DNA from: Patescibacteria group bacterium
GTDB taxonomy: Bacteria; Patescibacteriota; Patescibacteriia; Patescibacteriales; WJLG01
Length of the DNA: 64,000 nucleotides
Assembly: GCA_028707065.1 (NCBI GenBank)
Contig: JAQTUZ010000005.1
Coordinates: 3,334 to 67,333, forward strand
Direction of reading: 5' to 3'
The notes under the pieces were generated by a model, which ran no database searches, was not told where the DNA came from, and was given only the letters and a program-made list of their open reading frames with translations. The translations under genes and the position numbers were made by a program. Below, in pieces: positions 4,037-50,933 of this stretch (positions within the stretch are counted from its first letter, which is position 1; every line of letters starts with the position of its first letter).

Positions 4037-4109
4037 GCCGAGATAGCTCAGCTGGTAGAGCGACGGTATCGTAAACCGTAGGTCAGGGGTCCGATCCCCC
4101 TTCTCGGCT
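4037..4109 (+). tRNA. tRNA-Thr (anticodon CGU)
   Basis: Manual cloverleaf: acceptor gccgaga/tctcggc, D arm gctc-agctggta-gagc, anticodon arm acggt-aTCGTaa-accgt, T arm agggg-tccgatc-cccct. CCA is not encoded and a T-run follows. The T-loop has C where U55 is normally conserved. Confidence 0.8.
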
Positions 4110-4683: not shown

Positions 4684-4735
4684 AAACCCACCCCGCCTCG
4701 CCGGGCTCGGCACCCCTCCCGGGGAGGGGAATTTT
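4684..4735. repeat. GC-rich double-hairpin REP-like element
   Basis: aaacccaccccgcctcgccgggctcggcacccctcccggggaggggaatttt. It belongs to the same family as 1019-1125 and is nearly identical to 50831-50884. Confidence 0.8.
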
Positions 4736-4745
4736 CGTAAAAAAT

Positions 4746-7492: not shown

Positions 7493-8152
7493 TCAGTTTT
7501 TTGTAAGCTTTATTTTAAAAATAACCGTACCAAAAAAATAAAGAACGTAGTAGCCGGCCGTAAAAACCAATAAATTCCGGAAATATTCCCAATCCACGAG
7601 ATACTTTAGCAAATTTTGAAAAATCAACAAGGGATGAAGGAAGATATCCCAACTATTATAACGCTCGATCAGGCCAAGCAAGACCGCCCAGGAAACAAAA
7701 GGAATCATGCCATAGATCAAATTACGGGCAATTTTAGCATTAAAAATCTTGGCCAATACCTGACGCATCTGGGACAAGTAAATAGCAAACAAAACCCAGC
7801 CCAAAACGCTGTAAACAAAAAAATACATTATCTGCCAAGTACCGGCAATACAAACGCTGTTTGCCGAGTCGGCCGGGCAAAAATTCAACAAATGGCGGTT
7901 GCCCACCACCAAATAGGCGGCATTGGGCAAAAAAATGAACCAAAAGAAAAAAATGATAACGGCCCGGATTTTCTGGCCGGTTTTTTTAAACTTGGTTTTC
8001 TGCCAATAAGAAAAAAATAACAAAAACAATCCGAATGGCACCATGGCCAAAAATAAATTCCAAACCATCATCAAAAAAGGATAATCATTGACGTAAAATA
8101 GCCCGAACGTGTCCACAATATTCTTGATACTAAAAAAATGAGTAAAACTCAT
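7493..8152 (-). CDS. polytopic membrane protein, DUF1361-like
   Basis: About 6 TMs. The motifs WNLFLAMVPF and FLPNAAYLV resemble the conserved DUF1361 motifs as I recall them. Confidence 0.5.
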   Translation of the reverse strand: MSFTHFFSIKNIVDTFGLFYVNDYPFLMMVWNLFLAMVPFGLFLLFFSYWQKTKFKKTGQKIRAVIIFFFWFIFLPNAAYLVVGNRHLLNFCPADSANSVCIAGTWQIMYFFVYSVLGWVLFAIYLSQMRQVLAKIFNAKIARNLIYGMIPFVSWAVLLGLIERYNSWDIFLHPLLIFQNLLKYLVDWEYFRNLLVFTAGYYVLYFFGTVIFKIKLTKN

Positions 8153-13684: not shown

Positions 13685-13737
13685 ACACACCCCGTCCCGC
13701 CGAGGCGGCGGTCCACCCCTCTCGAGAGGGGAATTTT
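13685..13737. repeat. GC-rich double-hairpin REP-like element
   Basis: acacaccccgtcccgccgaggcggcggtccacccctctcgagaggggaatttt. Hairpin 1 is cgccg/cggcg and hairpin 2 is cccctc/gagggg. Confidence 0.75.
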
Positions 13738-13747
13738 ATATGCCGAC

Positions 13748-18575: not shown

Positions 18576-19634
18576 TTATTCATTCTTTTCCTCCTTGTGC
18601 TTTTCGGCTTGTCTTACCAGCCATTGCCAGAATTTTTTATTAAGAGCTTTGAAGAAATTAATAATCGTGCGCAAGATCGGCCGGGAGGGCAACAAAACCA
18701 GCCAGATAAAGAAACGCCAGAATCTGATCTTAACCAGCAGGGCGATTATCGCCAAAACTATCAAAACTATCCCCGCCGCGACCAGCCAGGGCCAGACGCC
18801 CAAATTATTTCCGCCCAAAATGCCCGGATTAGCGATAGTAAAGGCTATTTCATAATAATTGACGATCTCCTGCTCCTTATAAATTCTAACTTTGACCCAA
18901 TATTGTCCGGCGGGAAGATGAGTGGTAAATTCGGCTGTCACAGCCGCGGTGGAAAACGGGTCGATCTTTTTGATCGATCGGTCCACGCTTGACTGGAGCA
19001 TTTTTTTCTTACTCAGATCCCAAACCTCGATTGTTACTTGGGATGGCGCGGTTTTGACATTGCCTTTATTTTCGATATTCATCACGACCCTTATTTTGTA
19101 AAAAAGCCGGTTGAAGATCGGCGCCCAAATTTTCCAATCCCAAGGTTTGCCCAAGCGCTCGAAATCAGGAATGGAAACCAGCCTGACCAAAAAGTCCGCT
19201 TGGGAAACATTAGTCAGCGCCAAGTCAATATCGATCCGCGCGCCCAAAGCGATGGACACGCCGGCTCCATTTTCCGAGGCCGGGGCGACTTTAACATCGA
19301 TCGCGCCGGTATAGTTGCCCAATTCCGCGCCTTTGGGAATTTTAAAAGTTATCACCATCGGCACTTGCAATTTTCCCTTGGGCAAAACAAAACTGCCGCC
19401 CTGGTCAAGCGTAATCCAAGAAGCTATTTCCGGAGCATTGACTTTTACTTCCGCCTTAAGATCATCGGCAGCGTCCGACCGCAATAACATTATTTCCTGC
19501 TTGTAGGTCGAGCCTGGCGTTAATTGATGATTTTGGATCAAAGGCGGTGAAACGCCAAAACCAGCCCGAACGCCATTAGCCCAGGAAAAAAGCAAAACTA
19601 AAACAAGCAAAGGCAATAAAATTTTCTTTAGCAT
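18576..19634 (-). CDS. DUF916/DUF3324-like (CscA-like) surface protein with C-terminal TM anchor
   Basis: Signal peptide LLVLVLLFSWANGVRA. Two beta-sandwich-like halves (FGVSPPLIQNHQLTPGSTY..., NIENKGNVKTAPSQVTIEVWD...LPAGQYWVKVRIY) and a C-terminal TM. The architecture matches 46947, 48065 and 49250. Confidence 0.5.
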   Translation of the reverse strand: MLKKILLPLLVLVLLFSWANGVRAGFGVSPPLIQNHQLTPGSTYKQEIMLLRSDAADDLKAEVKVNAPEIASWITLDQGGSFVLPKGKLQVPMVITFKIPKGAELGNYTGAIDVKVAPASENGAGVSIALGARIDIDLALTNVSQADFLVRLVSIPDFERLGKPWDWKIWAPIFNRLFYKIRVVMNIENKGNVKTAPSQVTIEVWDLSKKKMLQSSVDRSIKKIDPFSTAAVTAEFTTHLPAGQYWVKVRIYKEQEIVNYYEIAFTIANPGILGGNNLGVWPWLVAAGIVLIVLAIIALLVKIRFWRFFIWLVLLPSRPILRTIINFFKALNKKFWQWLVRQAEKHKEEKNE

Positions 19635-19682
19635 TTAAATATATTCAATCTGAAGGGTGGCAAAGGAATGAAGCGACCCTCG

Positions 19683-19704
19683 GGAGCGCAAAATTTTGCG
19701 TTCC
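19683..19704. repeat. 22-nt palindromic motif (copy 1 of 2)
   Basis: ggagcgcaaaattttgcgttcc followed by tgc. Compare ggaacgcaaaatattgcgttcc followed by tgc at 23515-23536. Confidence 0.6.
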
Positions 19705-20053
19705 TGCAAGGGATTTCCCCCTCAAATTTTCACAATCATAAAACTATACGCCGTGGTATATCCCCCAAATTGCGTATAATCCTACAACTTAATCATACAA
19801 TAACTTTTTGGCAAATGCAATGATGATTATTAAACAATTATTAAGTTTAAAAATATTTATTATTAGCCTTTTTAAACCAAGGTCGCCAAATATTTTTTTA
19901 GCCTTAGAATCCGCCTGAAATACTGGACAAAAATTATCCTTGCCCTGTTCATAAAAAGTGATTATCGCTGAATGCTCTTTCGAGCATTAATTTTCAAAAT
20001 TCGAGTCAAATTTAGGCTGAATACGGCATTCGGCGACACAATCCCATAAGAGT

Positions 20054-22098: not shown

Positions 22099-22713
22099 TT
22101 ACACTTCATAATAGTAAATATTTTTGTCAGGCTTGTATTCTTTTTCTTTTTCAGTCAAAACTTTTTCCTCGCCGCCGATCAGAAAATTAAACCATCTTTT
22201 TTTCGGTTCGGTTTTCAAAACCTTGATCGGTTCCAAAAAAGGAATAATGAATCCGGAGCTGATAATTATAGCGCCGGCTCTGGGCTCGACGCGCAATTTT
22301 TTATAAATTTCGCGCAAAATTTGAACATCCAGGTAACAATAAACAACATTGGCCCCCTTGATATCCGCCAGATAATAGTCGGCGCATTTGACTTTGATCC
22401 GGCTGCCGCGGAAAAAAATCTGCAGCCGGGCCAGCGTGCAATGCCATAAACTGTCATCGACTCCGACCAATTTCACCGTAGGGAATTTTTTTTCCACCGC
22501 CCAAAGAAAGCCAGACCGGCCGTAACCCAAGGAGTAAACAACATAATCGTCTCTGATCTCGATTTGTTCCAATATTTTTTCCATTACTTCCGGATGCGAC
22601 TGCAGGAACGGGGCAAAACCGAAAAACAGCAATTCACGCAAAATAATAAAAATAAAAAATAAGACGATAAACAGAATAATTGCTTGAACGATGAAGATGA
22701 TTGTCGAAGCCAT
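22099..22713 (-). CDS. membrane-anchored class I SAM-dependent methyltransferase-like protein
   Basis: N-terminal TM (IIFIVQAIILFIVLFFIFIIL), a Gly-rich motif I-like SLGYGRSG, and the following strands KLVGVDDS and VVYCYL. Confidence 0.45.
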   Translation of the reverse strand: MASTIIFIVQAIILFIVLFFIFIILRELLFFGFAPFLQSHPEVMEKILEQIEIRDDYVVYSLGYGRSGFLWAVEKKFPTVKLVGVDDSLWHCTLARLQIFFRGSRIKVKCADYYLADIKGANVVYCYLDVQILREIYKKLRVEPRAGAIIISSGFIIPFLEPIKVLKTEPKKRWFNFLIGGEEKVLTEKEKEYKPDKNIYYYEV

Positions 22714-22724
22714 TAAATTAAAAT

Positions 22725-22870
22725 TTAGGGGGAACCCCTCAATAGTCCCGCCGGGGCGGGATCAAAGCTCCCCTTTCGCGGGAATAAAGGCGCTCGGGTC
22801 GCTCCACTATCCGGCCGACCCTCGCGGTTATTTTATACCAGCGAGCTCGCTGACGGGGAATTATAGATTA
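22725..22870 (-). promoter_or_regulatory. ~145-nt conserved intergenic element, copy 1 (candidate promoter plus structured leader, or MITE)
   Basis: About 80% identical by eye to 49090-49230. The minus strand starts with TCTATAAT, followed by a variable hairpin and the conserved core ataaaataaccgcgagNgtcggccggataNNggagcgacccgagc. It ends about 12 nt before the ATG at 22713. Confidence 0.4.
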
Positions 22871-22871
22871 A

Positions 22872-23441
22872 CTAAAATATGCCGAAAGTTTTCAGCGCGT
22901 CCTGGAAATCCTTTTGCATTGAAGAAAAATCGGCTTGATCCGCGCCGGGATAAGAATCGACGGGATAAAAATAATAGACGTAAGAATATTTGGTCGAATT
23001 GGTTTTCAATTCAGTTTCTCCGGCCGCCAATTTAAAACTCGCCTTATCGTCATATCTGATATACATTAGCGGCGCGGCGTAATTCGGATTTTTTACGTAA
23101 AGAATTGTCGTTTTTCTGTTGACATTATTAGTGTCTGACATTCGCCAGAATCCTTCCAAAAAACTGGGCACGTTGAGCGCGCCCTTGGCTCCGGCCGGAG
23201 CGCTTAAAAAGAAAGATTGGCGGGAATAAGTGGCGTTTTTCCTTTTATCCAGCAATACCTGGGCGGCTTTTTGCTGCTGCAACTCGGCCGTCCGTTTGGC
23301 CGCCATTTGCGGCTGCCAGAAAAACAGCCAAAAACCCAGCAAAATAAGGAGCGCGATAATAACGCCGAGAACCGGATAAAATATTTTTTTATTTCCGGTC
23401 CAGGAAATAAATTTTTGTTGCCGCTCGATCTTGTTGTCCAT
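22872..23441 (-). CDS. membrane-anchored hypothetical protein
   Basis: 189 aa with an N-terminal TM (IFYPVLGVIIALLILLGFWLFFW) and an extracytoplasmic domain. No motif recognised. Confidence 0.5.
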   Translation of the reverse strand: MDNKIERQQKFISWTGNKKIFYPVLGVIIALLILLGFWLFFWQPQMAAKRTAELQQQKAAQVLLDKRKNATYSRQSFFLSAPAGAKGALNVPSFLEGFWRMSDTNNVNRKTTILYVKNPNYAAPLMYIRYDDKASFKLAAGETELKTNSTKYSYVYYFYPVDSYPGADQADFSSMQKDFQDALKTFGIF

Positions 23442-28104: not shown

Positions 28105-31100
28105 TCACCATCCTGACCCGTTCAAAATCGCGGCAAAGGTGCTCGAACCATGGAAAGAAGTACGGGTGGAAGTGGCAGGAATGCCGATGCCCCAATAGAT
28201 CAAATCGGAAACATCGGAATTACTGGTCGGTTTGGCTAAATTAAGACTGACAAGCTCCCCGCCGTTTTTCAAAGTGCTGCCCGATGAATAGGAAAAATTT
28301 TGCGTCAAGTCCCAATGGATATAGGTAGAGTCGAGCGTGCTAACGATCAGGCCGGTCATATCAGTGCCGGCCACATCGCTGTTGATCGGCGAGTTGCCAT
28401 TATTGATCACCGTAACCGACTGATTGACCGAGCCGGTATCCGTGCCCGCGTCCATTCTGCCGAAATCGATATTTTCTTCCGGCACATTCAAAGCCAAATT
28501 GGTATTGACTTCGACCGTGGGCGAAGTGGTGGACATATAATTGGAGCCGTCGTAAACCTGCAAACGGCCGGACCAAGTGTCCGTACTCCAGATATTGCCG
28601 GTGGAGTTATCAGTCGGTTCGGCGAAAAATTTCATATTAGCCGTGCAAGTATAAGTGGCAATGGCGTCGGTAGGTCCGGAACAATCGCTTTTTACGCAAT
28701 CAGAGGTAGTAAGCTGATAACAATTATTATCATTAGCGGCGCAAACATACCCCAGCGCGGTGCGATAAATCACGCCCGTGGCCGAAACCAGGGTTTGGCA
28801 GCCATTAAGGTCAGTGACCGAAGTGTCGATCAATTGGACTTGCTTGTCGGCCGCGCCCTTGATATTTAAAGTTATATCGGCATTATTATTCAACGCCAAA
28901 GCTCCCAGCGACGGCGCCGTATTATTAATGTGATAACTGCTGGTTCGCGGGCTGGTGGTGGCGCCCAAGGAAAAATTATCAAAAACAAACGCGTAATAAG
29001 TATAGGCTCCGGCCGGATAAGGCGAAATATTTTGATAATGGCAGATCGGGTTGGCGGTCGTAGTGGCGGTTGTGGAACAGATCGTGTTGCCCGCTCCGCC
29101 GGTGCAGCCGGCCGCGGTCGCGCCATTGGTCGAACAAACATAATAACTCCAGGAATTATCAGTATCGCTATCCGCGGCCGTGGCTTGAATATCGATCAAA
29201 CTGCCCGGGTCTTTATAATCATTGAGCGTGGCAACGGCGCTGAATGACGGCGGATGATTGACGCGGAAAGTCGAAGCGTTCGGCGAGCCGGCCTGGCCCT
29301 GCGACACGGCGGAACATTGGGCGATACCGGCGCCATAATGATAATCGCAGGCAAAACCGTACCAATCATAATATTCAGAATAAAGATGGCTGGTGGAAGC
29401 GGAACAGCTGGCGGCGGCAGAGGAAGAAGCCCGGGAAGAAATGCACCAGGAACCTCCCGGACAAGTCGGCGCCCCGCCGTTGCCCGCGGTAATCGCGCTG
29501 GTTTTACAGATCGCCAAATAATATTGATCGGTCTGCGGGTCAGTAGAGGTGGCGGAAAAATTCACGTTTTGCCCGTAAGCGGTCGGGGTGGAAGTCGCCG
29601 AACCGCCATCCGAAGGCACTGAGGTAAATGACGGAGCGGTATTGGTGGTTCCGGCTACGGTCAATTCGGCATAACGGTCGTAAGCATCAAGCGCCACATT
29701 ATTTTTGGTGCCGCGGAAACAATAAGTTTGGCCGGCCTTGGCATTGGTGGTTGCTTTAATGGCGAATTCCACTTCAGTATCTTGGTCTTCGGCCAAGGTT
29801 ATCGCCGCTGAAGTGGCGGACGGACCATTGACCATGCGGCCGGTGGCATAGGCGTAGCCATTGGTGGATAACCACGCCCGGGTAGTGCTGGCATCGCTAT
29901 ACTGCGTGGAAGTGGCAATCTGGAATTGGTAAGTGGAGGTGGCCGTGCTCCGCACTTGATACCAGGAACTTAAAGCGCCGGAAGAACAATTGGTCGTGGT
30001 GGTAGCGTATTGCAGGCCAAAACCGTAATTGGCAGCTGTTCCGGCCTTGGTATTGGCAAAAGACAAACGCAATCGGATATTGGTTTTTTTACTGATGGCC
30101 GTGCCCAGCGTCGGGTCAGGCGTGTCCTCGGCTTCCCGCCAAGTGCCGGCCGACGCATCGTCAGCCCGCCAGCGATAATGCTTGCCAATAACGTAAGAAC
30201 TCGGCGTGGAAGTGGTGAACGACCAATAATCGGAGCGCAAAATTTCCGCTCCTGCTTGCTGGTAAACCCGATAGTAAACATACCCGCCGCTTAGATAATC
30301 GCTGATGCGATAATCAATCGTGCCGCTCAAAGTGAAATCAGTATTAAGCGCCGCCGAACTGTTGGAGGCCACCGAAGTCCAGGCATTGACCGAGCCAAAA
30401 CGATAAACCTGCAAATTGACATAATTAGCTGTCGGAGCCACGCTGGATTGGCCGTTCCAGGAAACATTCAAAGCATAAGTGGTTTTCCCGTCTCGGGCGG
30501 CAAAATTATAAATCGGATACTGACCGGACCCGCTGGTCATGCTGTCGCGATCATTATTATCAGTCGATACGGCCGTGTAACCGGGATTATCCAAAAAGTA
30601 AGTCAGGTTGACCGAATTGACCGGCAAGCTGCTCAAAATATCTTTGGAATATCGCTTAGTATCATTGGCCACCAGGCTTAAAGTGGGATAGGCCGAATAA
30701 ACATCGAAAGTGGAACTGCCGGTGCCGTCGATCAGCCTTAAGCGATAAGTTTTGCCCACGGTCGCGTTGACTGTCTGCACGGCAAAAGCGAATTCCGTAT
30801 AATGGCTGCTGAGCAAATTATACATATTGGTCAGATTGGTATTTTCCTGGAAAAAGCCGTCCGACCAAGTATTGCCATTGGCCGCGGCTTTGTTGGTGGT
30901 AATCGAATCGCCGTTCGCGCCGGAGATGCCGTAAGAATAGCTGATCGGCGTAGCGGCGCCCACATCGGTCCAGATTCCGGGCGAATCAGTATTATTTTCA
31001 TACTGCAGTTTGAAACGCTTATTATAAGTTTGATCGGCGCCGGTATTCTGGATCTGGACGCGGGCGTTGAGGCGCTGGCCTTTTTCCACATTGGCCAAGG

Positions 31101-34100
31101 GCGCTCCGGCCAGTCCCGGCGCGGTGTTCAAATTAACGCTGGCGCCATCGTCGTTTTCTATCAAGTAAGAAGTTTGCGCCAGTAAGTACCCGGAAGTGGT
31201 ACTGGCAATCATCGCCACGGTCGCGCTGGCTTTATTGCCGGCCAGATCGTAAGCCCAGATATTGAAAGTGTACCAGGAGCTTTTGGCCAAACCGGCCACG
31301 GTAGTGGTGACGGCGCCATTGTAATTAATGTAATTAAGGTTGGTGTCGCTTTGTTCCGAATCGCTTTCCGTAACCGGCGAAGTTGAACCTTTTTTATAAA
31401 AGATCCGATAGCGATAAAAATTGGTATCGGTCGTGGCCGAGCCGAAATGGACGTTGATCGAACCCGAAGTATGCGAACTGAAAACCAGATTGCCGGGCGT
31501 AGCGGGCGCGGCGGTATCGATCGTTATGTTGGGGGTGCTGGCATTGAAGCCGGCCCAGGCGGAGCAGATATCGCTCGCGTCGCAAACCAAAGCCTGCCAT
31601 TTATAAGCGCCGTCGGGAATATCAGTGAGCGAAGATGTTCCGATATAAGGCGTAACGCTGAAATCCTGGGGCGCGCCAGAATAGGTGACCACCCAGATTT
31701 TGGAAGTACAGCCGGAATAATCAGGGCTGGCGCAAGCTCCCGACGGCTTGGCCGTGCTGGTGGCGAAAGTTTGGCTGGTAGGAATGAATTGGTAATAGAT
31801 CGATAATGTTTCCGACGGATCAGGATCCGTGGCCTGGCCGGATAAAACGATATTTTTTTGATTGAAATAAGTGCCGTTGGTGATAACGGTCACCTTATCG
31901 CTCTGATACTGATACAAACTGCCGGCGTTATCAGGATACGAATCCACCGTCACCCTCAATCTGATCTGGTCGACATCGGCGGTAACCACCGTGGAGGAAG
32001 CGTTGAGCGCGTAAACTTTGGCATCAAGATTGATGATGTCATCCCAGATCCAGGCGGCTGGCGCGTTAGCATCGCTGGTAATGTCATCATAAAAAGTCGT
32101 ATCGCTGTCAGTCCGGCCAAAAAGCGACCCGGCCAAGGTATAAGTATTTCCGGCGGTCAAACCGGAAAATAGCGGAATTATCTTATAGCTTATATTGTTC
32201 GGGTCGTTGTTATATCCTTCCAGGCCGAGCTCAACGTCCAGAATAGACTTGGTGGTGGTAGCGACATTATTGGCCGTGCCTTGCAAATAATTGGCCGAGT
32301 CATCAGCCGAACTCCCCGGCACATTGCGATAAGCATATGTATCGTCGGTGTTATCCCAGGCATAAGGCGAATTGATCCACCCCTCCGTGGCGCCGCTGGT
32401 GTAATAATAAACTTCAGTCAAAGAATTGGATGTTTGAAAAGTTACGGCGGTGGAACTGGATTTGTTGCCGGCCTGGTCGTAAGCCCAAATATTAAAAACA
32501 TATTGGGTGTTGGCGGTCAAACCATCGATAGTGATCGACGGCACACCGTTATAGTTCAGATAGCCCAAACTGGAATCGCTGGACGAACCGAACAAGGTAT
32601 CGCTTTCCTTGACGCCGCTCGTCCCCTGCTTATAGAAAATTTTATACTGGCTGAAATTGGCTTCATAGCTTGGCGAACCAAACCCCAAAGTGATGCTGGT
32701 AGTTTTTCGGCTGACCAAAGAAAGTTGGCCCGGCGCTGTCGGCGCGATGGTATCGATCCTGAAATTGGGCGTGGACAAATTGTACGGCGCCCAGGGAGAA
32801 CAGCCGCCGCTATTGCAAGCAAGCGCGTGCCATTTGTAGCTGCTGTCGGGTATTAAAGTTATCATCGCCGCCTTGTTAACGGGCGTTAAATAATATTGTT
32901 CCGTGGAAGTCGAGTAAAAAGTGCCGGGAGAGTTTTGGTTATTATACTCCGTCAAGAGCCATTTGCCGGAACGGGCGACCGAAGCGATGCGGGCTTCATC
33001 GATAATACCGGTCCAATACTCCGTAGTGGCGCCGCCGAAATAAGAGCGGCCGATCTGGGTCGGGTCATTATTAGTAACGATCGTGCCGGTATGAGGGGTC
33101 GTTCCCTGAACAGCGCCGTTATAATAGGCGCGCAAATTCAAACCATCGTAAGTTCCGGCCACGTAAGAGAAGGTGGTGGGTAAAACCGTGGTGCTATAAG
33201 CATGATAAGCGGTTCCGCCCGAGTCCACTTCGGCATGCAATAATTTATTGGCCGAAGCATCCACGCCCAAGTTGAAGATCGCGTATGGGGCAACAGCGGA
33301 AGTTTGCGTTTTGGCGATGATCTTGGCGTAGTTAACCAAGGTGCCGCGCGTCGCCCAAGCCGAATAAGTCGCTCCGGTCGTCACATCGATATCGGCCAAG
33401 TTGATCGCCTGGGCCGTGCCGCTGAAATTTTTAGCAACGCCCAATTTGCCGGTGGTGTTGGTAGTGCCGACGTTAGTACCGTTATAATTGCCGGTCGAAT
33501 CTTTGAAATTATCAGTGGCCAAGTGATAGACGGCCAGATAGCTATTGGACCAGACGCTGCGGGCGCCGTAGGTGGTGGAAGAGGCGGGCTGGGAGGCGGT
33601 CGATGAACCGTAGTAAAGATAAAAAGTGTAATTAGAGGAGGAGGAAATGGAATCGGCGCGGAACCAGACTTCGCCCGAATAAGTGGAAGTGGCCAGCGAA
33701 ACGATTTCGACCGGCATTCTGGTTCCGGTGGAATTGGTGATGACGATGTCGCCGCCGTCGCTATTCCTCTTGGTGTGCCCCCAAAAATCATTAGTCGTAC
33801 CTAATCTGGCCATATCCAAATAAACGGGAAAATTGGTCAGAGCGCCGGCGATCTGGGAGCTTTGAACGACGATGGGAGTGCGATATTGGTAGCCTTTGCT
33901 ATACCAACCGCCGGTAATGGCGTTGTTAGTCCAAATTTTTCCCGCGCAGCTGGCAAAAGTTGTCCCGCTATAACAGAAAGTTGCCGGTACGGACGTGGCT
34001 ACCGTGAAAGTGTTGGCATTATCCAGCAATTCATAATAAAGGGAGAATGACGTGGCGCTCGTGGAAGTAGCCCACAGATTGACCGTATTGCTGGTGGTCC

Positions 34101-37100
34101 AAGCGCCGCTAGTTAAAACCGTGGAAGTGGACTGCTTGTACTGGATCAGCGAAAAAGGCTGAGCGGGAAATTCGGAAAGACTGACCAGGATTTCCGTACT
34201 GGCGCTGGCTTTGCGGCCGAACGTATCATAAGCGAAAATATTGAAAACATAGGTATAGCCGGTGGTCAAACCGGTAATGGTCGTCGAAGACTTGCCGTTA
34301 AAATTTATATAGCCCAAAGAAGCGTCGGAAGAAGAGCCCCAAAGCGAATCAGTTTCTTTAACGCCGCTTGTCCCCTGCTTATAGAAAATTTTATATTGTG
34401 AAAAGTTGGGATCTGAACTTGGCGCGCCAAAATTAAATTTTACGTTAGTGGCGCTTTTGGAATTAAAAATCAGATTCCCCGGGACAGTCGGCGCCGCCGT
34501 GTCGATCTTGATATTCGGCACCGTCGCGTTGAATTGCTTCCAATTTCTGGCGCAGCCGTTACTATCGCAGGCCAAAGCCTGCCATTTATAGTTACCATCG
34601 GGGATCGTCTTAAGATCAGCTTTGATCTCGTGGTTGGAATACCAGACTCGCGAGGCGCAACTTGCGTAAGCCGCGCCTGACGAACAAGCGCCGACCGGAG
34701 TGGTAGTGGCGGTAAGATACGGCTCGCTCGTCGTCGCCAGCTGATAATAAATCGTTACCAAGCCGCCATCCGGGTTGGTAGAGGTAGCATAAAGATTTAT
34801 TTCGTCCGCGTTGATCCAAGTATTATTGGCGATTGCCGTCGAGCCATCGGCCAAATATTGCTCCAAACTTCCGGCAATGGCAGGAGCATTGTTCGTGGTA
34901 ACAACGACTTCGCTGGTCCCGCTCGCCTTGTTGCCGTAAGAATCAAAAGCCCAAATATTGAAAACGTACTGGGTGTTGCCCAATAAGCCGCCGATCGTGG
35001 TGGTGGCCGCGCCGCCATAATTCACGCTGCCTAAATTAATATCGCTGGTGGAACTGAAAACAAAATCGGTTTCTTTGACGCCCGATGAGCCCACTTTGTA
35101 GAAAATTTTATACTGGTGGAAATTATTATCGTGAGCGGCCGAGCCGAAAGCCACCGTGACCGTACCGCCGGTCTTTTTGGAATAAGTCAAGCTTCCCGGC
35201 GGCAGCGGAGCCGCGTTATCGATATAAACGCTGGTGGTGGCGACATTATGATTGCCGCCGCGATTATCGTTGATGATCAGTTTGACGCAAACCGTGCCGG
35301 TGGCGGTGGGCAAATCAATCTTGGAAAGCCAAAAAGTATTGACGGCGTTGGCCCCGGCCGAGGTGGTGATATAACCCGATGAATTGCCGATCTGATCGGA
35401 GTTGCTGTTTAAAACCTTGGGGTCGCCGTGAGCGGCTGTCGTATTGGCGTCGGTTTCGTCGATGCGCGCCTTGTAAGCGGTGGTGCGGCAATTGGCGTCA
35501 AGATAATAATCCGCCCGGGCGGTAAGCGTGTCGTCCAGATCCGGATCATTGGCGGTAAAATTAAGATCAACCCCGCCTGAACCGTCGGATTTTTCCGTCG
35601 CTGAATTAAAAGTCACTGTCGGCAAGCGGTCAGTGCGCTCCCAAACCAGAGTCGTACTGGATTTGTGGCCCACCAGATCATAAGCCCAAAGCGAAAAACT
35701 ATAAACCGTACTGGTGGCCAGGCCGGTGACGGTAGTCGAGGATTTGCCGTTAAAAGTCCGCGAAGCAAGGTTGGCGTCCGAACTTGAGCCCCAAAGCGAA
35801 TCGGTTTCATGGATCGGCGTGGTTGAGCCAAGGCGGTAATAAAGTTTGTATTGGGAAAAATTCGCTTCCGTGGCCGCCGTGGGAAAACTCAATTTAATCG
35901 AAGCAGTGGTGGAAGCGACAGGATTCAAAGTGTTGGAAAAGATCGGCGCGTTGGCATCGACTAGAAAATTCGGGATCGAAGAATTGAATACGGCCCAGTT
36001 GGAACAGCCGCCGAGCGAATCGCAAGCCATGGCTTCCCATTTATAACCGGCGGGAGAAGTGGAATCCGGCACGCCGGGAATCATCACCGCTTTTTTATTA
36101 TTGGTCAGATAAAATTGTTCCGGGGTGGAAGTGGAGTAAAAAGTTCCCGGACTGTTTTGGTTGCGATATTCGGTGATAAGCCATTTGGTCGTCCGGGCGG
36201 TCGCGCCCAGGTGGACTTCGTCGATGATGCCGGTGAAATAGTCGGTTTCCGCGCCGCCGCCGCCGTAATAAGCGCGGCCGATATTCGTCGGCTCATTGTT
36301 AGTGTCGATAGTGCCGGTGCGGGCGGTAATCCCCTGCTGGGCGCCATTGTAGTAAGCGCGCAGATTAGAACCGTCATAAGTTGTTGCCGCCCAATACATG
36401 GTCCCGGCTGCCGGAGCAGTCGTGTCTTTTGCCACGTATTGCGTGGCGGCGCTGCATATTTCCCCTTGCGGCAATTTATTGGCCGAGGCATCATAGCTTA
36501 AAGTATAAATGACGAACGGAGCGACGTGGGTCGGTTGCATCTTGCCGATTATCTTCGCCCAGTTGCCGTTTCCCGCCGCCGGCTGATTCCAGGCGGAAAG
36601 AGTCATATTCGGCGTCAGATCAAGATCGCCCAAATTGATCCAGGCCGCGCCGTTAAAATTACGGGCGCCGCCGATCTTGCCGGTGGTATTGGTGGTTCCG
36701 TTGTCCGCGCCGTTCCACGTTCCGACCGAATCCTTCATACTGCTGTTTTGATAATGAAAAACAGCCGCGTAGCCATTGGACCAGACAGCGCGGGCGCCAT
36801 AGGTAGTGGTTGAAGCGACCTGGGCCGCGGTCGATGAGCCGTAGTAGAGATAGAAAGTGATATTGGAAGAAGAGGAAATGGAATCGGCGCGGAACCAGAC
36901 TTCGCCGGTTTTAGTGGAAGTGGCCAGTGAAACGACCTCGACCGGCATTCTGGTGCCCGAGGAATTAGTGATCAAAATATCGCCGCCGTCGCTGTTCCTT
37001 TTGGTGCGCGACCAAAAAGTATTAGCCGTACCCAGTCTGGCCATATCCAGATAGATCGGAAAATTAACCAGGGCGCCGCCGATCTGAGACGATTGGACTA

Positions 37101-40100
37101 CGATCGGCTGGCGATATTTATAACTGGTGGCGCTGCTAGACCAGCCGGAAGTGGTAGTGGCGTTGGCCCAAATATTATTACCGCAGGAAGAATAAGCCAG
37201 ATTATTCTTGCAAAATGTAGCTGGCGCGGTCGTCGCGGTATTATACGATGAGCCGCTGGGGATCAATTGATAATAAACCACCAAGGGATCGGAATCCTTG
37301 TCAGTGGATGTCGCCTGAAGATTCACCGTACTCTGCAAGGTCCAGGCGCCGTTGGTAATCGGCGTGGAAGTGCTTAACGGATATTGCTGCAGGGGGTAAG
37401 GATTGGCAGGCACGTGGTTAGTGATCAGCGTTTCCGAACCGAGCGCCGCGGCCACCGTGCTGGAAGCGTATTTGCGGACGCGATAATTATCCCAAGTGCC
37501 AAATTGGTTGGCGGCCACGCCATATTCGCCATCCGTGTAAGAAGTGTTGGTCGTAGTACAAGTTGATAAGTATGGCGTGGTAGTGGCGCCGGCATACAGG
37601 GAAGCCTGCAGCAGGCCGGTGGAGCGCCAGGTGAATTGGAGAAAATACCAAGTATTGGCAACGACAGTATAGGTATTGCTATTGGCAATGACCTGGGCGC
37701 CATCAAAATCTTTTCTGATCGTCAAATAATAAGTGCCGCCCGTGCCTCTGGTATCAGTGAAAACGGTATAACCGATCAATTCGCCGCCGCCGGTAGGATG
37801 CCCAACCTCAATGCCGGGCAGCGCGCCCAAAGTACTCGACGATTGGCTCATGGTCCAAGTTTCCCAGATAAGGTTTCGGCCTGAATTAATACTGGGGCGC
37901 GTGCCCAGATGCTTGACGCCGGCAGTATTGCTTTCCAATCCCAAGCTGCCGTATTTGGCGGCAATGCCGCCGATCCGCGCCAAGCTCAAGCTGCCGCTGG
38001 TAAAATCGTTGCTGGTTTCAAAATCATTGAAGTAAACAAAAGTATTGGCCCCGGAAGAATAGGAAGCGGCGGCGCTATTGCCATAATAAAGATAGATCGT
38101 TTTATTGCCGGTGATCAAAGGGATTTTCACCCAAACCTTGGTATAAGATCTGTTGCAAGTATTCGGCTCAAGAAAATAATACAGCTCGCTGGTATCGCTA
38201 TATCGATTGGAATCGGCAAAAGCGATATCCGAGCAGTCTGAGTTCATTTTGCCCGCCGCGATCAAAGTGGCGGTATCGATAGTGACCGGCACTTGAAAAT
38301 CAGTCAAGGTGTTGCCGCCGGCGTAAGTGACGCTGACCGGGACTTCATAATTCCAGCTGGCGTTCCACCAGGGATCCAAAAGCCCATAGCCTGATTTGTC
38401 GCCGACGGTTTCCAAATAAAATTCGCCCTGGGAACCGAAAGTAAAAGAAATATTCATTTTAAAATATTCGGTTTCGCCGGGCTGAATGCTGAATTGTCCG
38501 GCAGCCGTGCTGGAACGGGGCACGAAATTTTCCGGCACGCTTTTTTTACGCGGGCCAAGACCGAATATTTTTTGCCAAAGATTTCTTTGATCCGGAAGTT
38601 TGCCGGCTATGATCTCCGCGGCATTCCATTGATCGACATTTTCCATTGCCCCGGAACTGCCGACGATCACCTGGTTTTGCCGGCACTTTTTTTGATCAGG
38701 AGAAAGCGAATCGCATTGCCGGCTATTATTTTTCCCCGGGCAAAAATAAATTTGGCCGGAACTTGTCGCTATCTTGGCAGAATTCGCTTCCTGCTCGGCG
38801 GAACTTGTCGCCTGTTCTACGGAGCTTGTCGCCTGTTCGGTAGAACTTGTCGCTTGCCATCCGGCAGAACAATAATAAATGCGGTCGCCCCGGGTCGGAT
38901 TTTTCACGGTCATGGCTCGGCGGCTTAATTTTTCCAAACCGGTCATATTGCCGTCGGCGGCGGGAAAATAAGTTTGCAGGCCGAAATTTTCCGTTTGCTC
39001 GCCCTGATTGGTAACGCTGAAATAAACCAGCGCGCCGTTGAGGCCGGAATAATTTTGCCGGTCGGTCTTGATGATCAAGTTTTCATCATCAACGGCATCG
39101 GAGTAAGCGAAATCGATCTTTTGGCCGTCAGTGGTCAAGGGCGCGTCATTGAAAAAATGTTCTTCGGCGCCGGGTACGCCGAGCTGATCCTCGGTTTTTT
39201 CCTCTGCGGCTTTCACCTGGCCTTGGTTGTAATCGACTTCCAGCCAAAGGCCGTCCAGATAAATCTTGGCTGCTTTGGCCGAGAGATCAGCGGCGGAAAT
39301 TTCGCTGTTTTGATAGCTGATCCTGACGCGAAGGTTATTGATATCGTCCCAGGAATTAAAAACGGGCAAAGCATAAAGGAAGTAACCGCCGTTGGCGGCA
39401 TTGGCGACTCCGCCCTTGAGAAACAGATCGCCGGCCGTTTGCCAATCCCCGCCGGTGGAATATTCCACCAACAAATGATCAAAAGTGAAAGTGCTGGCCG
39501 CGGCCAGCGATAATCTTAACTGGACGTTGGTTATTTCGCTGGCGGCAGAATAGCTGTCGAGGTTAAAATCGGAAAAGATCAAACTGTCTTTAAGTTCAGC
39601 CGGCTCGACCGCTGCTTTTGAATTATTCAGCTCTGGCGAAGAAGTGGCCGCATCGATCGCGTTTTCCGCCAAAGCCTTGGGGGCGGAAATTAAATTATGC
39701 CAAAATTGGCCGATGGCGCGCGCCGTGGATTTTAAATTAAAGATCAGGGAAACCGGGCCGCTGTCCGCGCCGCCGCCATTAGCTCCCTGATCAATACCGG
39801 TCGGAACCGGAACGGAATTATTATCACTTCCTCCCGGCGCCGAATCAATCGGCGCGCTCTCCGCGGAATTATCCGGTAAAGTCAAGGCTGGATCGCCGGC
39901 TGGCTGGCTCGAATCGTTTTCTCCCGCAGCCGGACCGGCTTCGGGCAAATGATTTTGGCCGGCGGAAGAATCCAACGCTGGCGCCGCCGGCAAGCCGCCG
40001 TCTCCGGAAGAAGATCCGCCGGAATCAACCGGCTCTTGGATTGCTCCGTCGTTCACCAGAACCGGCGAAGATCCTTGATCGGCCGGAACCGGACTGGGCG

Positions 40101-48064: not shown

Positions 48065-49078
48065 TTATTTTTTTAAGTTAATCACGTATTTATGGTGGTG
48101 GCGAGGAACGGAGCCGGGTTCGGCTTCAAGCTCATCGCCGTTTTTTTCCATAGGTGAGACTGATCTTTTCTCCTGCCTTTTTTTGTGGATGAACCAGGCC
48201 GCGCCGTAAAGCAATCCCAAAATAATCGCCAATAAAGCGATAAACAAAGCCAGGGGCAAATAGGAAAAGTAAACGATATCGGTCAGATTTTTCCCGTTAT
48301 TCTGGCCGTAATCAAGATTAAGCATGGCCTTGAACTTTCCCGGCCCAAGAGCAAGCTTGCCCGCGGCGGAAAAATCTTTTACTTCGTCGGGAGCAATGGT
48401 GCCGCCGGCGATCGACAGTGAACCGACTTCCTGGCCGCCTTTATTGTAAATGATTATTTCGCCAGTTGGCGCCACCGGCTGATTGCCGATATTTTTTATC
48501 TTTAAAACAAAGCTGATATTGTTTTTCGTAAAAAGAGCGCTCGCCGGCTGGAAGCGGTTAATTTCCGCTTGCTCTACCTGATGCTCGACCAGATCCAGAT
48601 TGATCTGCACTTTCGCGGCGTTCATTTTTTGATCGCTCGCTTGCGCCTCGGGCAGATTGCCGCCGGCGGGAAAAGAAATGATCGCGTGATATTTTCCGGG
48701 CCGGGCGTTAGGGCTGGCGGTGATGCGCAAAGTTTGCGTCGCGGTTTCGCCCGGCGGAATTTCGATCACCGCGCGGTAAAAATCGATCCAGCGAACCAGT
48801 GAGGCATCAGCCGGAAGATCAGACGGATCGCCATAAGGAATTATGCCCGCGGCAGGCGAAAGATCGTTGACTTGCGCGTAAACATCGGCCCGAGCGGCGG
48901 AATTATTTTTAATCGCGATAGTTTCCTCCAGGCAGATTCTCCCCTTTTCGCAAGCGGCCACGTCGATCACCGCCGGCGTAACGCTTAAATCAAAAATGGT
49001 ATCGGCGGAAACGATCGCGGGCGAAAAAAACACCGGCAACAGCAGACTAAAAAATATTAATTTTTGCAATAGGCGCAT
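48065..49078 (-). CDS. DUF916/DUF3324-like (CscA-like) surface protein with C-terminal TM anchor
   Basis: ATG at 49078 (MRLLQKLIFFSLLLPVFFSPAIVSA); the track start at 49087 is a TTG. The layout matches 46947 (IFDLSVTPAVIDV.., KIKNIGNQPVAPTGEIIIYN.., a TM and a basic tail). Confidence 0.5.
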   Translation of the reverse strand: MRLLQKLIFFSLLLPVFFSPAIVSADTIFDLSVTPAVIDVAACEKGRICLEETIAIKNNSAARADVYAQVNDLSPAAGIIPYGDPSDLPADASLVRWIDFYRAVIEIPPGETATQTLRITASPNARPGKYHAIISFPAGGNLPEAQASDQKMNAAKVQINLDLVEHQVEQAEINRFQPASALFTKNNISFVLKIKNIGNQPVAPTGEIIIYNKGGQEVGSLSIAGGTIAPDEVKDFSAAGKLALGPGKFKAMLNLDYGQNNGKNLTDIVYFSYLPLALFIALLAIILGLLYGAAWFIHKKRQEKRSVSPMEKNGDELEAEPGSVPRHHHKYVINLKK

Positions 49079-49089
49079 TTTATTCAAAT

Positions 49090-49230
49090 TGAGGGGAAAA
49101 CCCTTGATGGTCCCGCCGCGGCGGGATCAAGACTCCCTTTTCCAAGGTGCTCGGGTCGCTCCGTTATCCGGCCGACTCTCGCGGTTATTTTATGCCCCGC
49201 AGTTTGCTCGCGGGGAATTATAGATTAAAA
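49090..49230 (-). promoter_or_regulatory. ~145-nt conserved intergenic element, copy 2
   Basis: Aligns with 22725-22870: same TCTATAAT 5' end, same conserved core, and the GC hairpin cccgccgcggcggg flanked by cttgat/atcaag. It ends about 12 nt before the start region of 48065..49078. Confidence 0.4.
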
Positions 49231-49249: not shown

Positions 49250-50371
49250 TTAAAATAAAATAAAGTAAAGGATGGCGATCACCGCCGCCGCGATTCCCGA
49301 TAAAATCAAGAAGGTCAGCGCAATTTCATTTTTCTCGCGCGGCGATTTTTTCTTGGTTAAAATTTGTCCGCCCCGCAAGCCCATCTTCTTCAAGGCCGCG
49401 TTGATCGCCATTTTCCGATAAACTCGCAGAAAAATCAGAAAAAGAGTGATCAAAACCAAGAGGCTCGCGCCGACCGAAACGAGTATTTTGACGGGGAAGA
49501 TCCAAAAATACCAAAACATCGTCAGAGTTTTTCGCCCTTCGCCTCCCAATTCGGCGGGCGTGCCGTAACTTAAAACCAGTACTGCCTGATAACGGCCGAA
49601 ACCGAAACTGTCTTTCCAGTTAGCGGCGAACAAACGGGCGCTTTTCGGCAAAATATTTCCCCCCTTGTCGTTAACCGGCAAAACCGCCACCTTGCGGCCC
49701 AGCATATTGCTGATTTCGATCACACCCATGGGCTTGATATGCACGTTGCCCAAATTTTGAATTTTGGCGGAAAAATTCACGGAAAAAGGCGTGGCGTAAA
49801 AAATTTTATCAGTCTTGAATTCGCGGATATCGGCGCGTTCATCGGCAACGCCCTCTATCTGCAATAAAAGCAAAGCTGCCGCCTGTTCGGCCACGCCGAT
49901 CGCGGCGCCCTTTTCCGCCTCGCCCGGTTTGAGTTTCGGCGCTTGGGTGCCAAAAACGATCGCTCCGTAATACCCGCCCGGCCCGACATTGGAAGGAACA
50001 TTGACCGTAAAAGGGATCGCCCGGCCTTGCCCGGGTGAAAGAACAATGCCGTCGGTCGAAATATTTATCCAGGAAGAAATATAATTGCCTGCCTCGGTTC
50101 CGGGCACGATCAATTCCGCTTTGCCGCTTTCATCTTCGGCCGCGGCTTTAAAATCTTTCAAGAAAGCGTAAAAAGTTATCTCTTTATCCGATTGATTGGT
50201 TAAAGTGATCGCGCTAGTAAGCACATCGCCGGGTTTGACCATTTCTTCCAGAATCGATGGCGTGACCTTAATGGTGATTTGATTGGCATCCGCCGCCTTG
50301 GCCGCGCCAAATGGCATTAAAAAACAAATTGCCATTAATCCCCAAATCGCCAATTTTTTTTCCCTTAGCAT
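49250..50371 (-). CDS. DUF916/DUF3324-like (CscA-like) surface protein with C-terminal TMs
   Basis: ATG at 50371 (MLREKKLAIWGLMAICFLMPFGAAKA) is preferred over the TTG at 50425. ITIKVTPSILEEMVKPGDVL.., KIQNLGNVHIKPMGVIEISN..LPKSARLF..YQAVLVLSYG, and C-terminal TMs. Confidence 0.5.
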   Translation of the reverse strand: MLREKKLAIWGLMAICFLMPFGAAKAADANQITIKVTPSILEEMVKPGDVLTSAITLTNQSDKEITFYAFLKDFKAAAEDESGKAELIVPGTEAGNYISSWINISTDGIVLSPGQGRAIPFTVNVPSNVGPGGYYGAIVFGTQAPKLKPGEAEKGAAIGVAEQAAALLLLQIEGVADERADIREFKTDKIFYATPFSVNFSAKIQNLGNVHIKPMGVIEISNMLGRKVAVLPVNDKGGNILPKSARLFAANWKDSFGFGRYQAVLVLSYGTPAELGGEGRKTLTMFWYFWIFPVKILVSVGASLLVLITLFLIFLRVYRKMAINAALKKMGLRGGQILTKKKSPREKNEIALTFLILSGIAAAVIAILYFILF

Positions 50372-50485: not shown

Positions 50486-50565
50486 TTGAATTATCAATAA
50501 TATTATAGCAATCCTTGGACATTTTCTCAACTGCCGAATTGTTACTAAACTGTGCAAAAATATAA

Positions 50566-50597
50566 CGCGAATACCACGAATTATACTCGAATACCAC
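50566..50597. repeat. family B words (direct)
   Basis: cgcgaataccacgaattatactcgaataccac. Confidence 0.5.
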
Positions 50598-50608
50598 AAA
50601 CCATTTAT

Positions 50609-50754
50609 AATTCCCCTCTTGCTTGCCCCGCAAAGCGAAGCGATGCGTGGGGGGGTGGCCGCGCCGCCTTGTCCGCCTCGGGCGTAGCGAGACGGGGTGG
50701 AAGTCCCCTCTTGGGAGGGGTGGCCGGCCCCTGGCCGGACGGGGTGGGTTTATT
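50609..50754. repeat. two adjacent GC-rich REP-like units in inverted orientation
   Basis: The reverse complement reads aaacccaccccgtccggccaggggccggccacccctcccaagagggga, followed by a more diverged second unit. Confidence 0.7.
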
Positions 50755-50830
50755 CTTCTTCCTTATTATTGTTATTTTTATTTATCCACCCTCCAATAAT
50801 TTTCAAAATATTTTTAAATAATGTCAGGAA

Positions 50831-50884
50831 TATACCCTCCCCGCCTCGCCGGGCTCGGCACCCCTCCCGAGGAGGGGACAAACA
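50831..50884. repeat. GC-rich double-hairpin REP-like element
   Basis: ataccctccccgcctcgccgggctcggcacccctcccgaggaggggacaaac, near-identical to 4684-4735. Confidence 0.8.
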
Positions 50885-50933
50885 AAAAAACCGCCGGTGT
50901 TCAACCAGCGATTTTATTTTTTGATAAAATATT

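Follow-up and report, generated by a model that had tools for sequence, protein, structure and literature searches.

A modular, leader-like element with a conserved hairpin core lies before the start codons of unrelated genes in Patescibacteria

A conserved, unannotated element of about 150 nt lies directly upstream of two unrelated genes in the 64-kb stretch of Patescibacteria DNA analysed here (the window), and further copies occupy the same position in a Candidatus Falkowbacteria MAG. Its intact copies are placed in sense orientation immediately before start codons, its modules are kept or lost independently of one another, it has been gained and lost at orthologous loci, and one part of it, the core, is selectively conserved. 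We read it, with a probability of a little under one half (about 0.45), as a dispersed, lineage-restricted, modular promoter/5'-leader cassette that would be transcribed from a start of its own in some copies and act in cis as RNA, its core being a probable factor-binding or processing hairpin. On the best reading it is neither a riboswitch nor a classical MITE. Apart from the corrections given below, the element is as an earlier, first-pass annotation of this DNA described it.

The two intact copies in the window, A and B (Table 1), are both on the minus strand and have a mean column identity of 81% on alignment, close to the 80% previously judged by eye. Each opens with TTAATCTATAAT, identical in A and B as had been reported, and each abuts the start codon of its downstream gene in the sense orientation. 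The first base of copy A follows immediately on the stop codon (22872-22874) of an upstream 189-aa gene; the 391-aa WxLIP-like gene upstream of copy B is a paralogue of the 337-aa gene downstream of it. The highly conserved core, which had been put at about 44 nt, is a 45-nt sequence, ATAAAATAACCGCGAGnGTCGGCCGGATAnnGGAGCGACCCGAGC, found twice in the 64-kb window (22792-22836 and 49149-49193, minus strand; 42/45 positions match between the copies), with none expected in 100 shuffles. A strongly conserved block, CCCCCTmAA, stops 10 nt 5' of the ATG in both copies, near the end point of about 12 nt suggested originally, and weaker similarity carries on from there up to the ATG. Copy A also has an 8-nt insertion relative to copy B, UAUUCCCG (22778-22786 with 22743-22751), which duplicates the 5' arm of the inner hairpin described below and so gives GCGGGA two alternative partners. 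A search of the 64-kb window with sub-blocks of the unit, allowing up to three mismatches, gave no additional intact copy. Both copies counted in the first-pass annotation are real; a third and decayed one (copy C) had been missed.

Table 1. Positions of the element, its modules and associated features in the window.
Feature	Position	Strand	Remarks
Copy A, full unit	22714..22871	minus	TTAATCTATAAT to base before ATG of 204-aa gene
Copy A, TATAAT (-10-like box)	22860..22865	minus	no matching -35
Copy A, P0 (5' hairpin CAGCG-AGCU-CGCUG)	22839..22852	minus	
Copy A, P1 core (GCGAGGGTCGGCCGGATAGTGGAGCGACCCGAGC)	22792..22825	minus	34/34 identical to both Falkowbacteria MAG copies
Copy A, P2 (GGGGAGCUUUGA...UUGAGGGGUUCCCC)	22728..22772	minus	encloses inner hairpin UCCCGCC/GGCGGGA (22746-22761)
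Copy A, AU-rich tail (UAAAUUUUAAUUUA)	22714..22727	minus	no Shine-Dalgarno; translation-initiation region of 204-aa gene
Gene downstream of copy A	22099..22713	minus	204-aa membrane-anchored protein, no Pfam family
Copy B, full unit	49079..49228	minus	between 391-aa WxLIP-like gene (stop 49250-49252) and ATG (49076-49078) of 337-aa gene
Copy B, TATAAT (-10-like box)	49217..49222	minus	no matching -35
Copy B, P0 (5' hairpin CCCCGC-N9-GCGGGG)	49195..49215	minus	same position as in A, other sequence
Copy B, P1 core	49149..49182	minus	three differences from copy A
Copy B, P2 (GGGAGUCUUGA...UCAAGGGUUUUCCCC)	49093..49137	minus	encloses inner hairpin (49111-49126)
Copy B, AU-rich tail (UCAAUUUGAAUAAA)	49079..49092	minus	no Shine-Dalgarno; translation-initiation region of 337-aa gene
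Gene downstream of copy B	48065..49078	minus	337-aa surface protein, secreted or anchored; paralogous to WxLIP_PGBD proteins
Copy C, decayed	19640..19725	+	antisense to genes; abuts ATG (19632-19634) of 352-aa gene
Second repeat family	~1028-1125 (two tandem copies), 4691-4745, 13690-13740, 50839-50890	minus	
Second repeat family, composite	~50606-50770	+	begins with TATAATTCCCC, same as the studied element

Read 5' to 3', the modules are the TTAATCTATAAT box, a hairpin (P0), an A-rich linker (AUAAAAUAAC), the P1 core, a GGAA/GGAG linker, P2 and an AU-rich tail, in which CUCAAUUUGAAU-like sequence leads to the AUG. The description of a 5' hairpin with altered sequence and retained pairing is borne out, as CAGCG-AGCU-CGCUG and CCCCGC-N9-GCGGGG both fold, with a third version, CCCAG-N12-CUGGG, at the equivalent position of a related genome (locus L015). 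P1 (GCGAGGGUCGGCCGGAUAGUGGAGCGACCCGAGC) is predicted to form an imperfect hairpin composed of two G-C pairs, a tandem G.A/A.G, a 6-bp stem, a 1x2 internal loop and a 3-bp stem, closed by a terminal loop that is GAUAG in copy A and, for the unit in general, GAUAR; its pairing is kept in copy B, where a U-to-C change turns a G-U pair into a G-C pair. P2 joins a G-run to a C-run through the pairing of GGGGAGUCUUGA with UCAAGGGUUUCCCC; the hairpin that it encloses is free in sequence, and all four substitutions between A and B in P2 keep the pairing. The enclosed, inner hairpin is the GC hairpin recognised at the outset (TCCCGCCsCGGCGGGA in A and B, giving UCCCGCC/GGCGGGA); its place is taken by GGG-GAAA-CCC and CAGG/CCUG in the MAG and by GGAGCGC/GCGUUCC in copy C. 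Hairpins are replaced and not lost: three P0 sequences are known, and four or five inner hairpins, each set sharing one position in the unit. A K-turn was considered for P1 and rejected, the tandem G.A pairs, as read from the sequence, having no adjacent 3-nt bulge.

The predicted fold of the 3' half differs between the two genomes: in the most stable fold of the MAG copies the C-run has the inner region as its partner in place of the 5' strand of P2, and in the copy upstream of ftsZ this alternative pairing is a perfect 15-bp hairpin. Pair counting over six sequences gave 91% of cells paired. The covariation that the first-pass annotation had proposed looking for gave no signal beyond shuffled controls in these six sequences, an input in which P1 does not vary and the changes in P2 are one-sided; what support there is for the pairing comes from the replaced hairpins. 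Folding energies of the sense and antisense strands are similar, with no decisive asymmetry.

Of the promoter proposed for the element the analysis recovered a -10-like box. A perfect TATAAT is present in A and B, and a -10 box in three copies of the family; the whole window holds 65 TATAAT hexamers. A promoter scan of the minus strand of both copies found no -35/-10 pair at the sigma-70 spacing of 16-18 nt, and the box is decayed in the two MAG copies. At the other end of the unit, the tail resembles the -20 to -1 regions of nearly all genes in the window, which are AU-rich and without a Shine-Dalgarno sequence. Only the genes starting at 15542 and 27902 carry AGGAG/GGGGA-like motifs.

Gene starts at these leaders may be misplaced. 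The start of the second gene, taken earlier to be a TTG at 49087, is the ATG at 49078, since orthologues begin ATGCG. An open reading frame listing likewise extends ftsZ of the MAG by 14 in-frame codons from a TTG within the element (L001 6118-6162), and the pilO-like gene from a GTG inside the core (L002 2402-2485); gene callers could place N-termini wrongly at such leaders. Two other readings of this region were discarded. A conserved small ORF fails because the GTG in the core is missing from copy B, the TTG after GGAG is missing from the pilO-like copy, and the TTG frames and lengths differ among copies, that in front of ftsZ being in frame by chance. A split Shine-Dalgarno, in which a hairpin would bring GGAG near the AUG, fails on inconsistent spacing (9 nt in the ftsZ copy and ~20 in the pilO-like copy).

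The proteins flanking A and B are non-homologous (BLASTP E 0.18 between the two downstream and E 13 between the two upstream proteins), which confirms that the two downstream genes are unrelated. The label 'methyltransferase-like' for the 204-aa protein is unsupported, because that protein matches no Pfam family even at E<=10. The label 'CscA-like' for the 337-aa protein is reasonable, since the WxLIP_PGBD (former DUF916) protein next to it is its paralogue (E 1e-16). Across all four intact copies the downstream genes (the 204-aa membrane protein, the 337-aa WxLIP-like surface protein, ftsZ and a pilO-like gene) are unrelated genes of the cell envelope and of cell division, and the common theme that the first-pass annotation suggested seeking did not emerge, as they share no pathway or transport function.

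Every protein gene of the window runs on the minus strand, and the sole plus-strand gene is a tRNA at 4037-4109. Two giant surface proteins, at 28105-40533 (4142 aa) and 52271-63967+ (>3898 aa, made of long internal repeats), are also encoded on the minus strand; they sit among cohesin/dockerin, Big_13, fn3 and WxLIP-like proteins, which indicates that the window is a cell-surface gene island.

Other repeats and motifs occupy the spacers of the window. A second GC-rich repeat family of ~50 nt (TTCCCCTCCCCrGGAGGGGTG..CCCGGCG..CGGGGTGGGTTT) is intergenic and has two hairpins, and the GTG 'starts' of the ORFs at 1027 and 4691 are probably false since they lie inside its repeats. The AT-rich motif AACTAATTAACCAAT(c/t)AAC stands directly upstream of three unrelated minus-strand genes (starts at 6857, 45675 and 46753). 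Short tandem-like repeats with GAAATTAGAAATT, TTTTGGATTT, ATTGGATATTGG, CTTACTT and ATTCGnnGTATTCG-type units are found in spacers upstream of the genes at 8152, 16929, 15542, 42604 and 43197 and also at 1821, 4691, 10179, 40533 and 50560-50600; the ATTCGnnGTATTCG-type units are conserved at the orthologous place in a related genome (L015 8480-8540). Beside the decayed copy C, a block at 19726-19830 (+) is 81% conserved with its counterpart in the related locus L013 (12830-12885, minus strand). It contains TTGCGTATAAT on the plus strand and TTGCAT-N17-TATGAT on the minus strand, and may drive transcription of the 352-aa gene or else of an antisense or small RNA.

The element belongs to a very small family. 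At gathering score, Rfam 15 returned only a tRNA from the whole window; copy A had no match at E<=10, and copy B yielded at that cut-off nothing but noise, at 10-21 bits where the gathering scores are 50-191 and in part on the wrong strand, in agreement with the first-pass annotation, which had recognised no known riboswitch consensus in the core. Distant-mode BLASTN against plasmid and phage collections found no match to the element. The exact apical core, used as query against one genome per species, found one other MAG, a Candidatus Falkowbacteria, with two copies on contig CAVVFV010000012.1, a sequence distinct from the window DNA with which it shares only matches of 34-42 nt. One of these (L001) occupies the spacer between ftsA and ftsZ, its end 7 nt short of the ftsZ ATG. 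The second (L002) is placed between pilN-like and pilO-like genes inside a pilM-N-O-B cluster; its A-rich 5' end overlaps or abuts the stop codon of the preceding gene, and 11 nt separate its conserved 3' block from the ATG. The four intact copies are thus all in sense orientation, with the last conserved block ending 7-11 nt before the ATG. A metagenome scan in which the P1b stem was allowed to vary gave two GC-rich chance matches, and a viral scan one, each below 7 bits with the model. One MAG from the genome scan and nothing beyond chance matches from the other two indicate a very narrow family.

Two covariance models, R1 and R2, built from the copies and run over ~220 kb of the window and its relatives, bring the total to seven members in two or three genomes, four intact and three degenerate. 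The degenerate members are copy C, its orthologue in a related genome (L013 12885-12989, minus strand; R1 E 9e-4, nhmmer E 5.6e-4) and copy D (L015 8380-8480; R1 33 bits, E 1.4e-9). Copy D has TTAAATCTATAAT, TATAAT, the third P0 hairpin and the basal P1 stem, with the apical core altered or lost; it is truncated after GGGGGAGUC and has no adjacent start codon. The loci L013 and L015 (ERZ25039473 contig_43950) come from the same assembly sample as L017 (ERZ25039473 contig_58167, which is CAVVFV010000012.1). The pilB leader of the Falkowbacteria MAG (L002 3522-3604) has no core and scores 10.8 bits with R1 (E 0.24); its end is built in a comparable way, of AGGA, a U-run, a hairpin GGGAAACC..GGUUUCC and UUCUUAAUU-AUG, and may be a distant relative of the 3' module or reflect a leader design common in the lineage.

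At all three orthologous sites examined (ftsZ, site A and site B) relatives are without the full element, two of the sites being empty and one holding 3' remnants. Upstream of ftsZ, three relatives (FtsZ 96%, 94% and 91% identical) share with the MAG a TTGATA-N17-TATAAT promoter and have a leader of ~60 nt, compared with which the MAG has ~120 extra bases directly 5' of the ATG. At site A, the spacers of two relatives, whose proteins are 86% and 79% identical, measure 70 and 45 nt and have no core. One contains AGUCUG|UCAAGGGUUCCCCCCUCAAUUUGAAUUAUAUG, which corresponds to the P2 strands without the inner hairpin, plus the tail, and the other a hairpin plus a degenerate tail. In L013 the core of site A is gone and the 3' block and tail beside the ATG are retained. 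At site B the spacers of two relatives, 20 and 29 nt long, show no trace of the element. The unit therefore comes and goes, and any function that it has for the host is dispensable, close relatives doing without it at all three sites.

Presence and absence at orthologous loci, together with the decayed and truncated copies, are as would be expected of a mobile repeat, so that the MITE proposed as an alternative in the first-pass annotation is right as regards gain and loss; its hallmarks did not turn up in the sequences searched. All four intact copies contain internal hairpins and no terminal inverted repeats, no transposase is encoded in the 64-kb window or in the fetched loci, and comparison of filled with empty sites (ftsZ and site B) shows no consistent direct repeat, the junctions being AT-rich and diverged. 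Flanking repeats of ATAAAAT (copy B) and AATTGC (the ftsZ copy) were considered as target duplications and are taken as chance because their boundaries are inconsistent and the sequence is AT-rich. CsrA-type GGA sites, rRNA mimicry and an integron attC site were also considered and set aside, the last because there is no RYYYAAC/GTTRRRY.

Conservation within the unit is strikingly uneven. The 34-nt core is identical (34/34) in copy A and both MAG copies and matches at 31/34 positions in copy B, while the remainder of the unit is 57-80% identical, with indels, and the inner hairpin 25-40% between genomes. Dead copies show what happens to this sequence without constraint: copy C and its orthologue in L013 agree at 44/84 aligned positions (~52%), with 31 gap columns and 16/30 in the core, and the intergenic flank beside copy C is better kept than the copy itself (43/53, 81%), from which we conclude that the sequence decays quickly once constraint is lifted. 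Given an identical core in otherwise diverged units and the drift of the dead orthologous pair, purifying selection on the core at each locus probably explains its conservation best, rather than recency of the copies; the divergence of the rest of the unit also makes recent transfer unlikely. The modules decay independently, as seen in the MAG copies, in the truncated copy D and in the remnant of site A in L013. Of the MAG copies, one is fed by the conserved ftsZ promoter and the other lies inside the pilM-N-O-B operon, and in both TATAAT and P0 are decayed (TTTAATTTGTAAT in one; TTGATCCGAAAA, inside the upstream CDS, in the other), with P1, P2 and the tail intact. That the core appears to be constrained as sequence points to recognition by a trans-acting factor or nuclease.

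These features are consistent with the following scheme for a promoter/5'-leader cassette. The cassette would be copied, without the hallmarks of a transposon, into short spacers before the start codons of unrelated genes and transcribed as the leader of the downstream mRNA, the transcript of the window copies beginning at the unit's own -10 box, that of the MAG copies being supplied by an upstream promoter or operon read-through. P0 and P2 would sequester the GC-rich parts and so leave the last ~15-20 nt open for initiation independent of a Shine-Dalgarno sequence, with the tail supplying an initiation region like those of most genes in the window. P1 would serve as a sequence-specific docking or processing hairpin for a trans-acting factor, either an RNA-binding protein or an RNase, that sets the stability or translation of the message. 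The proposal in the first-pass annotation of a novel cis-regulatory RNA accords with a hairpin-built unit in sense orientation, directly before start codons and without an Rfam family; a riboswitch is unlikely, and covariation does not exceed that of shuffles.

The main rival is a purely selfish, non-autonomous mobile element, either REP/PATE-like or an atypical MITE, with the core hairpin recognised by a strand-specific transposase. Sense orientation and a short distance to start codons would, on this view, simply follow from insertion of one particular strand into AT-rich spacers between one-way genes, and the location of all the window's protein genes on one strand agrees with this, as do the absence of the full element from relatives at three orthologous sites (two empty, one with remnants), the existence of decayed (C), truncated (D) and internally deleted derivatives, the one copy that is antisense to genes, the restriction to one other MAG in the genome scan, and the second GC-rich, REP-like repeat family in the same window. 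It is harder to reconcile with an invariant core in a diverged remainder, which recent transposition does not predict, or with intact copies that all end 7-11 nt from the ATG and supply the translation-initiation region. The second hairpin is moreover free in sequence, unlike the paired ends of IS200/IS605 derivatives, and terminal inverted repeats, a consistent target-site duplication between filled and empty sites, and a transposase in the 64-kb window or fetched loci were all lacking. We consider a purely selfish origin unlikely, if a serious competitor, and the three explanations that follow less likely again.

One of these places the activity in DNA: a lineage-specific transcription factor would have its operators in the imperfect dyad GGGTCG-N14-CGACCC and the other conserved blocks, all of them lying on a promoter region that was duplicated. 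Conservation of the core as sequence, without compensatory changes, the similar sense and antisense folding energies and the -10 box in three copies fit such a site, but two intact copies have no -10 box and lie inside operons or far downstream of the real promoter, the asymmetric GA/GA positions in the dyad and the change from G-U to G-C suit an RNA helix better, and the hairpins of free sequence (P0 and the inner hairpin) would have no role; we think it improbable. A metabolite- or ion-sensing riboswitch of a new class would account for a highly conserved core in a 5' leader with no Rfam match, and the pairing of the G-run and C-run near the start region could be its expression platform. We nonetheless give it very little weight: no metabolic theme links the downstream genes, orthologous genes have no core in front of them (ftsZ in three relatives, the 204-aa gene in two and the 337-aa gene in two), the family spans only two or three genomes, there is neither a conserved terminator nor an alternative structure that would sequester a Shine-Dalgarno sequence before genes that have none, and the core hairpin is a simple stem-loop with no junction or pocket-like architecture. 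An independent small RNA gene that merely happens to lie upstream of other genes is hardly more plausible. It would have its own TATAAT, a compact, hairpin-rich body of ~130 nt and, at the end of copy A only, a terminator-like match; no U-tract terminator is common to the copies, the copies stay similar as far as the start codon, neither MAG copy has its own promoter, and the pilO-like copy abuts or overlaps the stop codon of the gene before it.

If the cassette reading is right, the family is an expression module that has been moved as a unit before essential and envelope genes, with the promoter box, core and initiation tail kept or lost by local need, and its copies amount to a natural dissection of what matters. 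CPR/Patescibacteria have small genomes and few recognisable regulators, and to our knowledge almost nothing is known of how their genes are regulated; were the core a factor-binding site, it would offer a simple handle for finding a post-transcriptional regulator in CPR organisms. A bolder idea, which we hold to be rather doubtful, is that a lineage-specific RNA-binding regulator or RNase docks on the invariant 34-nt hairpin, which would make the cassette a portable regulon tag. Through copying of the tag, ftsZ, pilus assembly and surface proteins would come to share a single post-transcriptional control, in an ultra-small CPR bacterium largely without Shine-Dalgarno-led initiation. Should the element prove to be only a selfish repeat, it would still be a clean example of repeats that rewrite 5' leaders and mislead start-codon calls.

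Several known systems share features with the element. REP/REPIN sequences and the IS200/IS605-derived PATE are built on an imperfect hairpin of conserved sequence and have a strand-specific look and no inverted termini, all of which the element has too. REPs are usually downstream of genes, in both orientations, conserved over the whole unit and dependent on RAYT/TnpA, whereas the element has a second hairpin of free sequence, is fused to the start region and has no RAYT/TnpA in view. Putative mobile promoters (PMPs) have been delimited as at least 50 nt at no less than 80% identity within ~150 nt upstream of two start codons, with non-homologous CDSs upstream and downstream (Matus-Garcia, Nijveen and van Passel, NAR 2012, PMC3488235). 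According to the authors most PMPs have no Rfam family and no insertion sequence nearby (PMC3488235). The class is an operational one with no mechanism attached. Copies A and B fall within these limits on both counts (81% over the whole unit; BLASTP E 0.18 and E 13 for the flanking proteins), and like PMPs the element matches no Rfam family and has no insertion sequence in sight. It differs in being a leader rather than a promoter, since most of what is conserved is downstream of the -10 box; decay affects its promoter module, and the unit extends right to the ATG.

By analogy, the element in its behaviour resembles the BOX elements of pneumococci and, leaving inverted repeats aside, the Correia elements. 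Correia elements of Neisseria (CREE/NEMIS) are ~100-150 bp long, lie beside genes, and can supply a promoter and co-transcribed structured leaders; their presence varies between strains, and they have 26-bp terminal inverted repeats and a TA target duplication. The element is of comparable size, adjoins genes and is likewise variable in presence, but has neither the terminal inverted repeats nor a visible TA duplication. The BOX elements of Streptococcus pneumoniae are modular (boxA/B/C) intergenic repeats that are short, GC-richer and without a transposase; they are often in 5' untranslated regions, have stable predicted RNA folds and can alter expression of the adjacent gene, and they vary in presence between strains, with >100 copies per genome in both orientations. 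The element, too, is short, modular, GC-richer, variable in presence and unaccompanied by a transposase in the sequences searched. It shares no sequence similarity with BOX, and is set apart by its handful of copies, the intact ones all in sense orientation, and by the one module that is held invariant.
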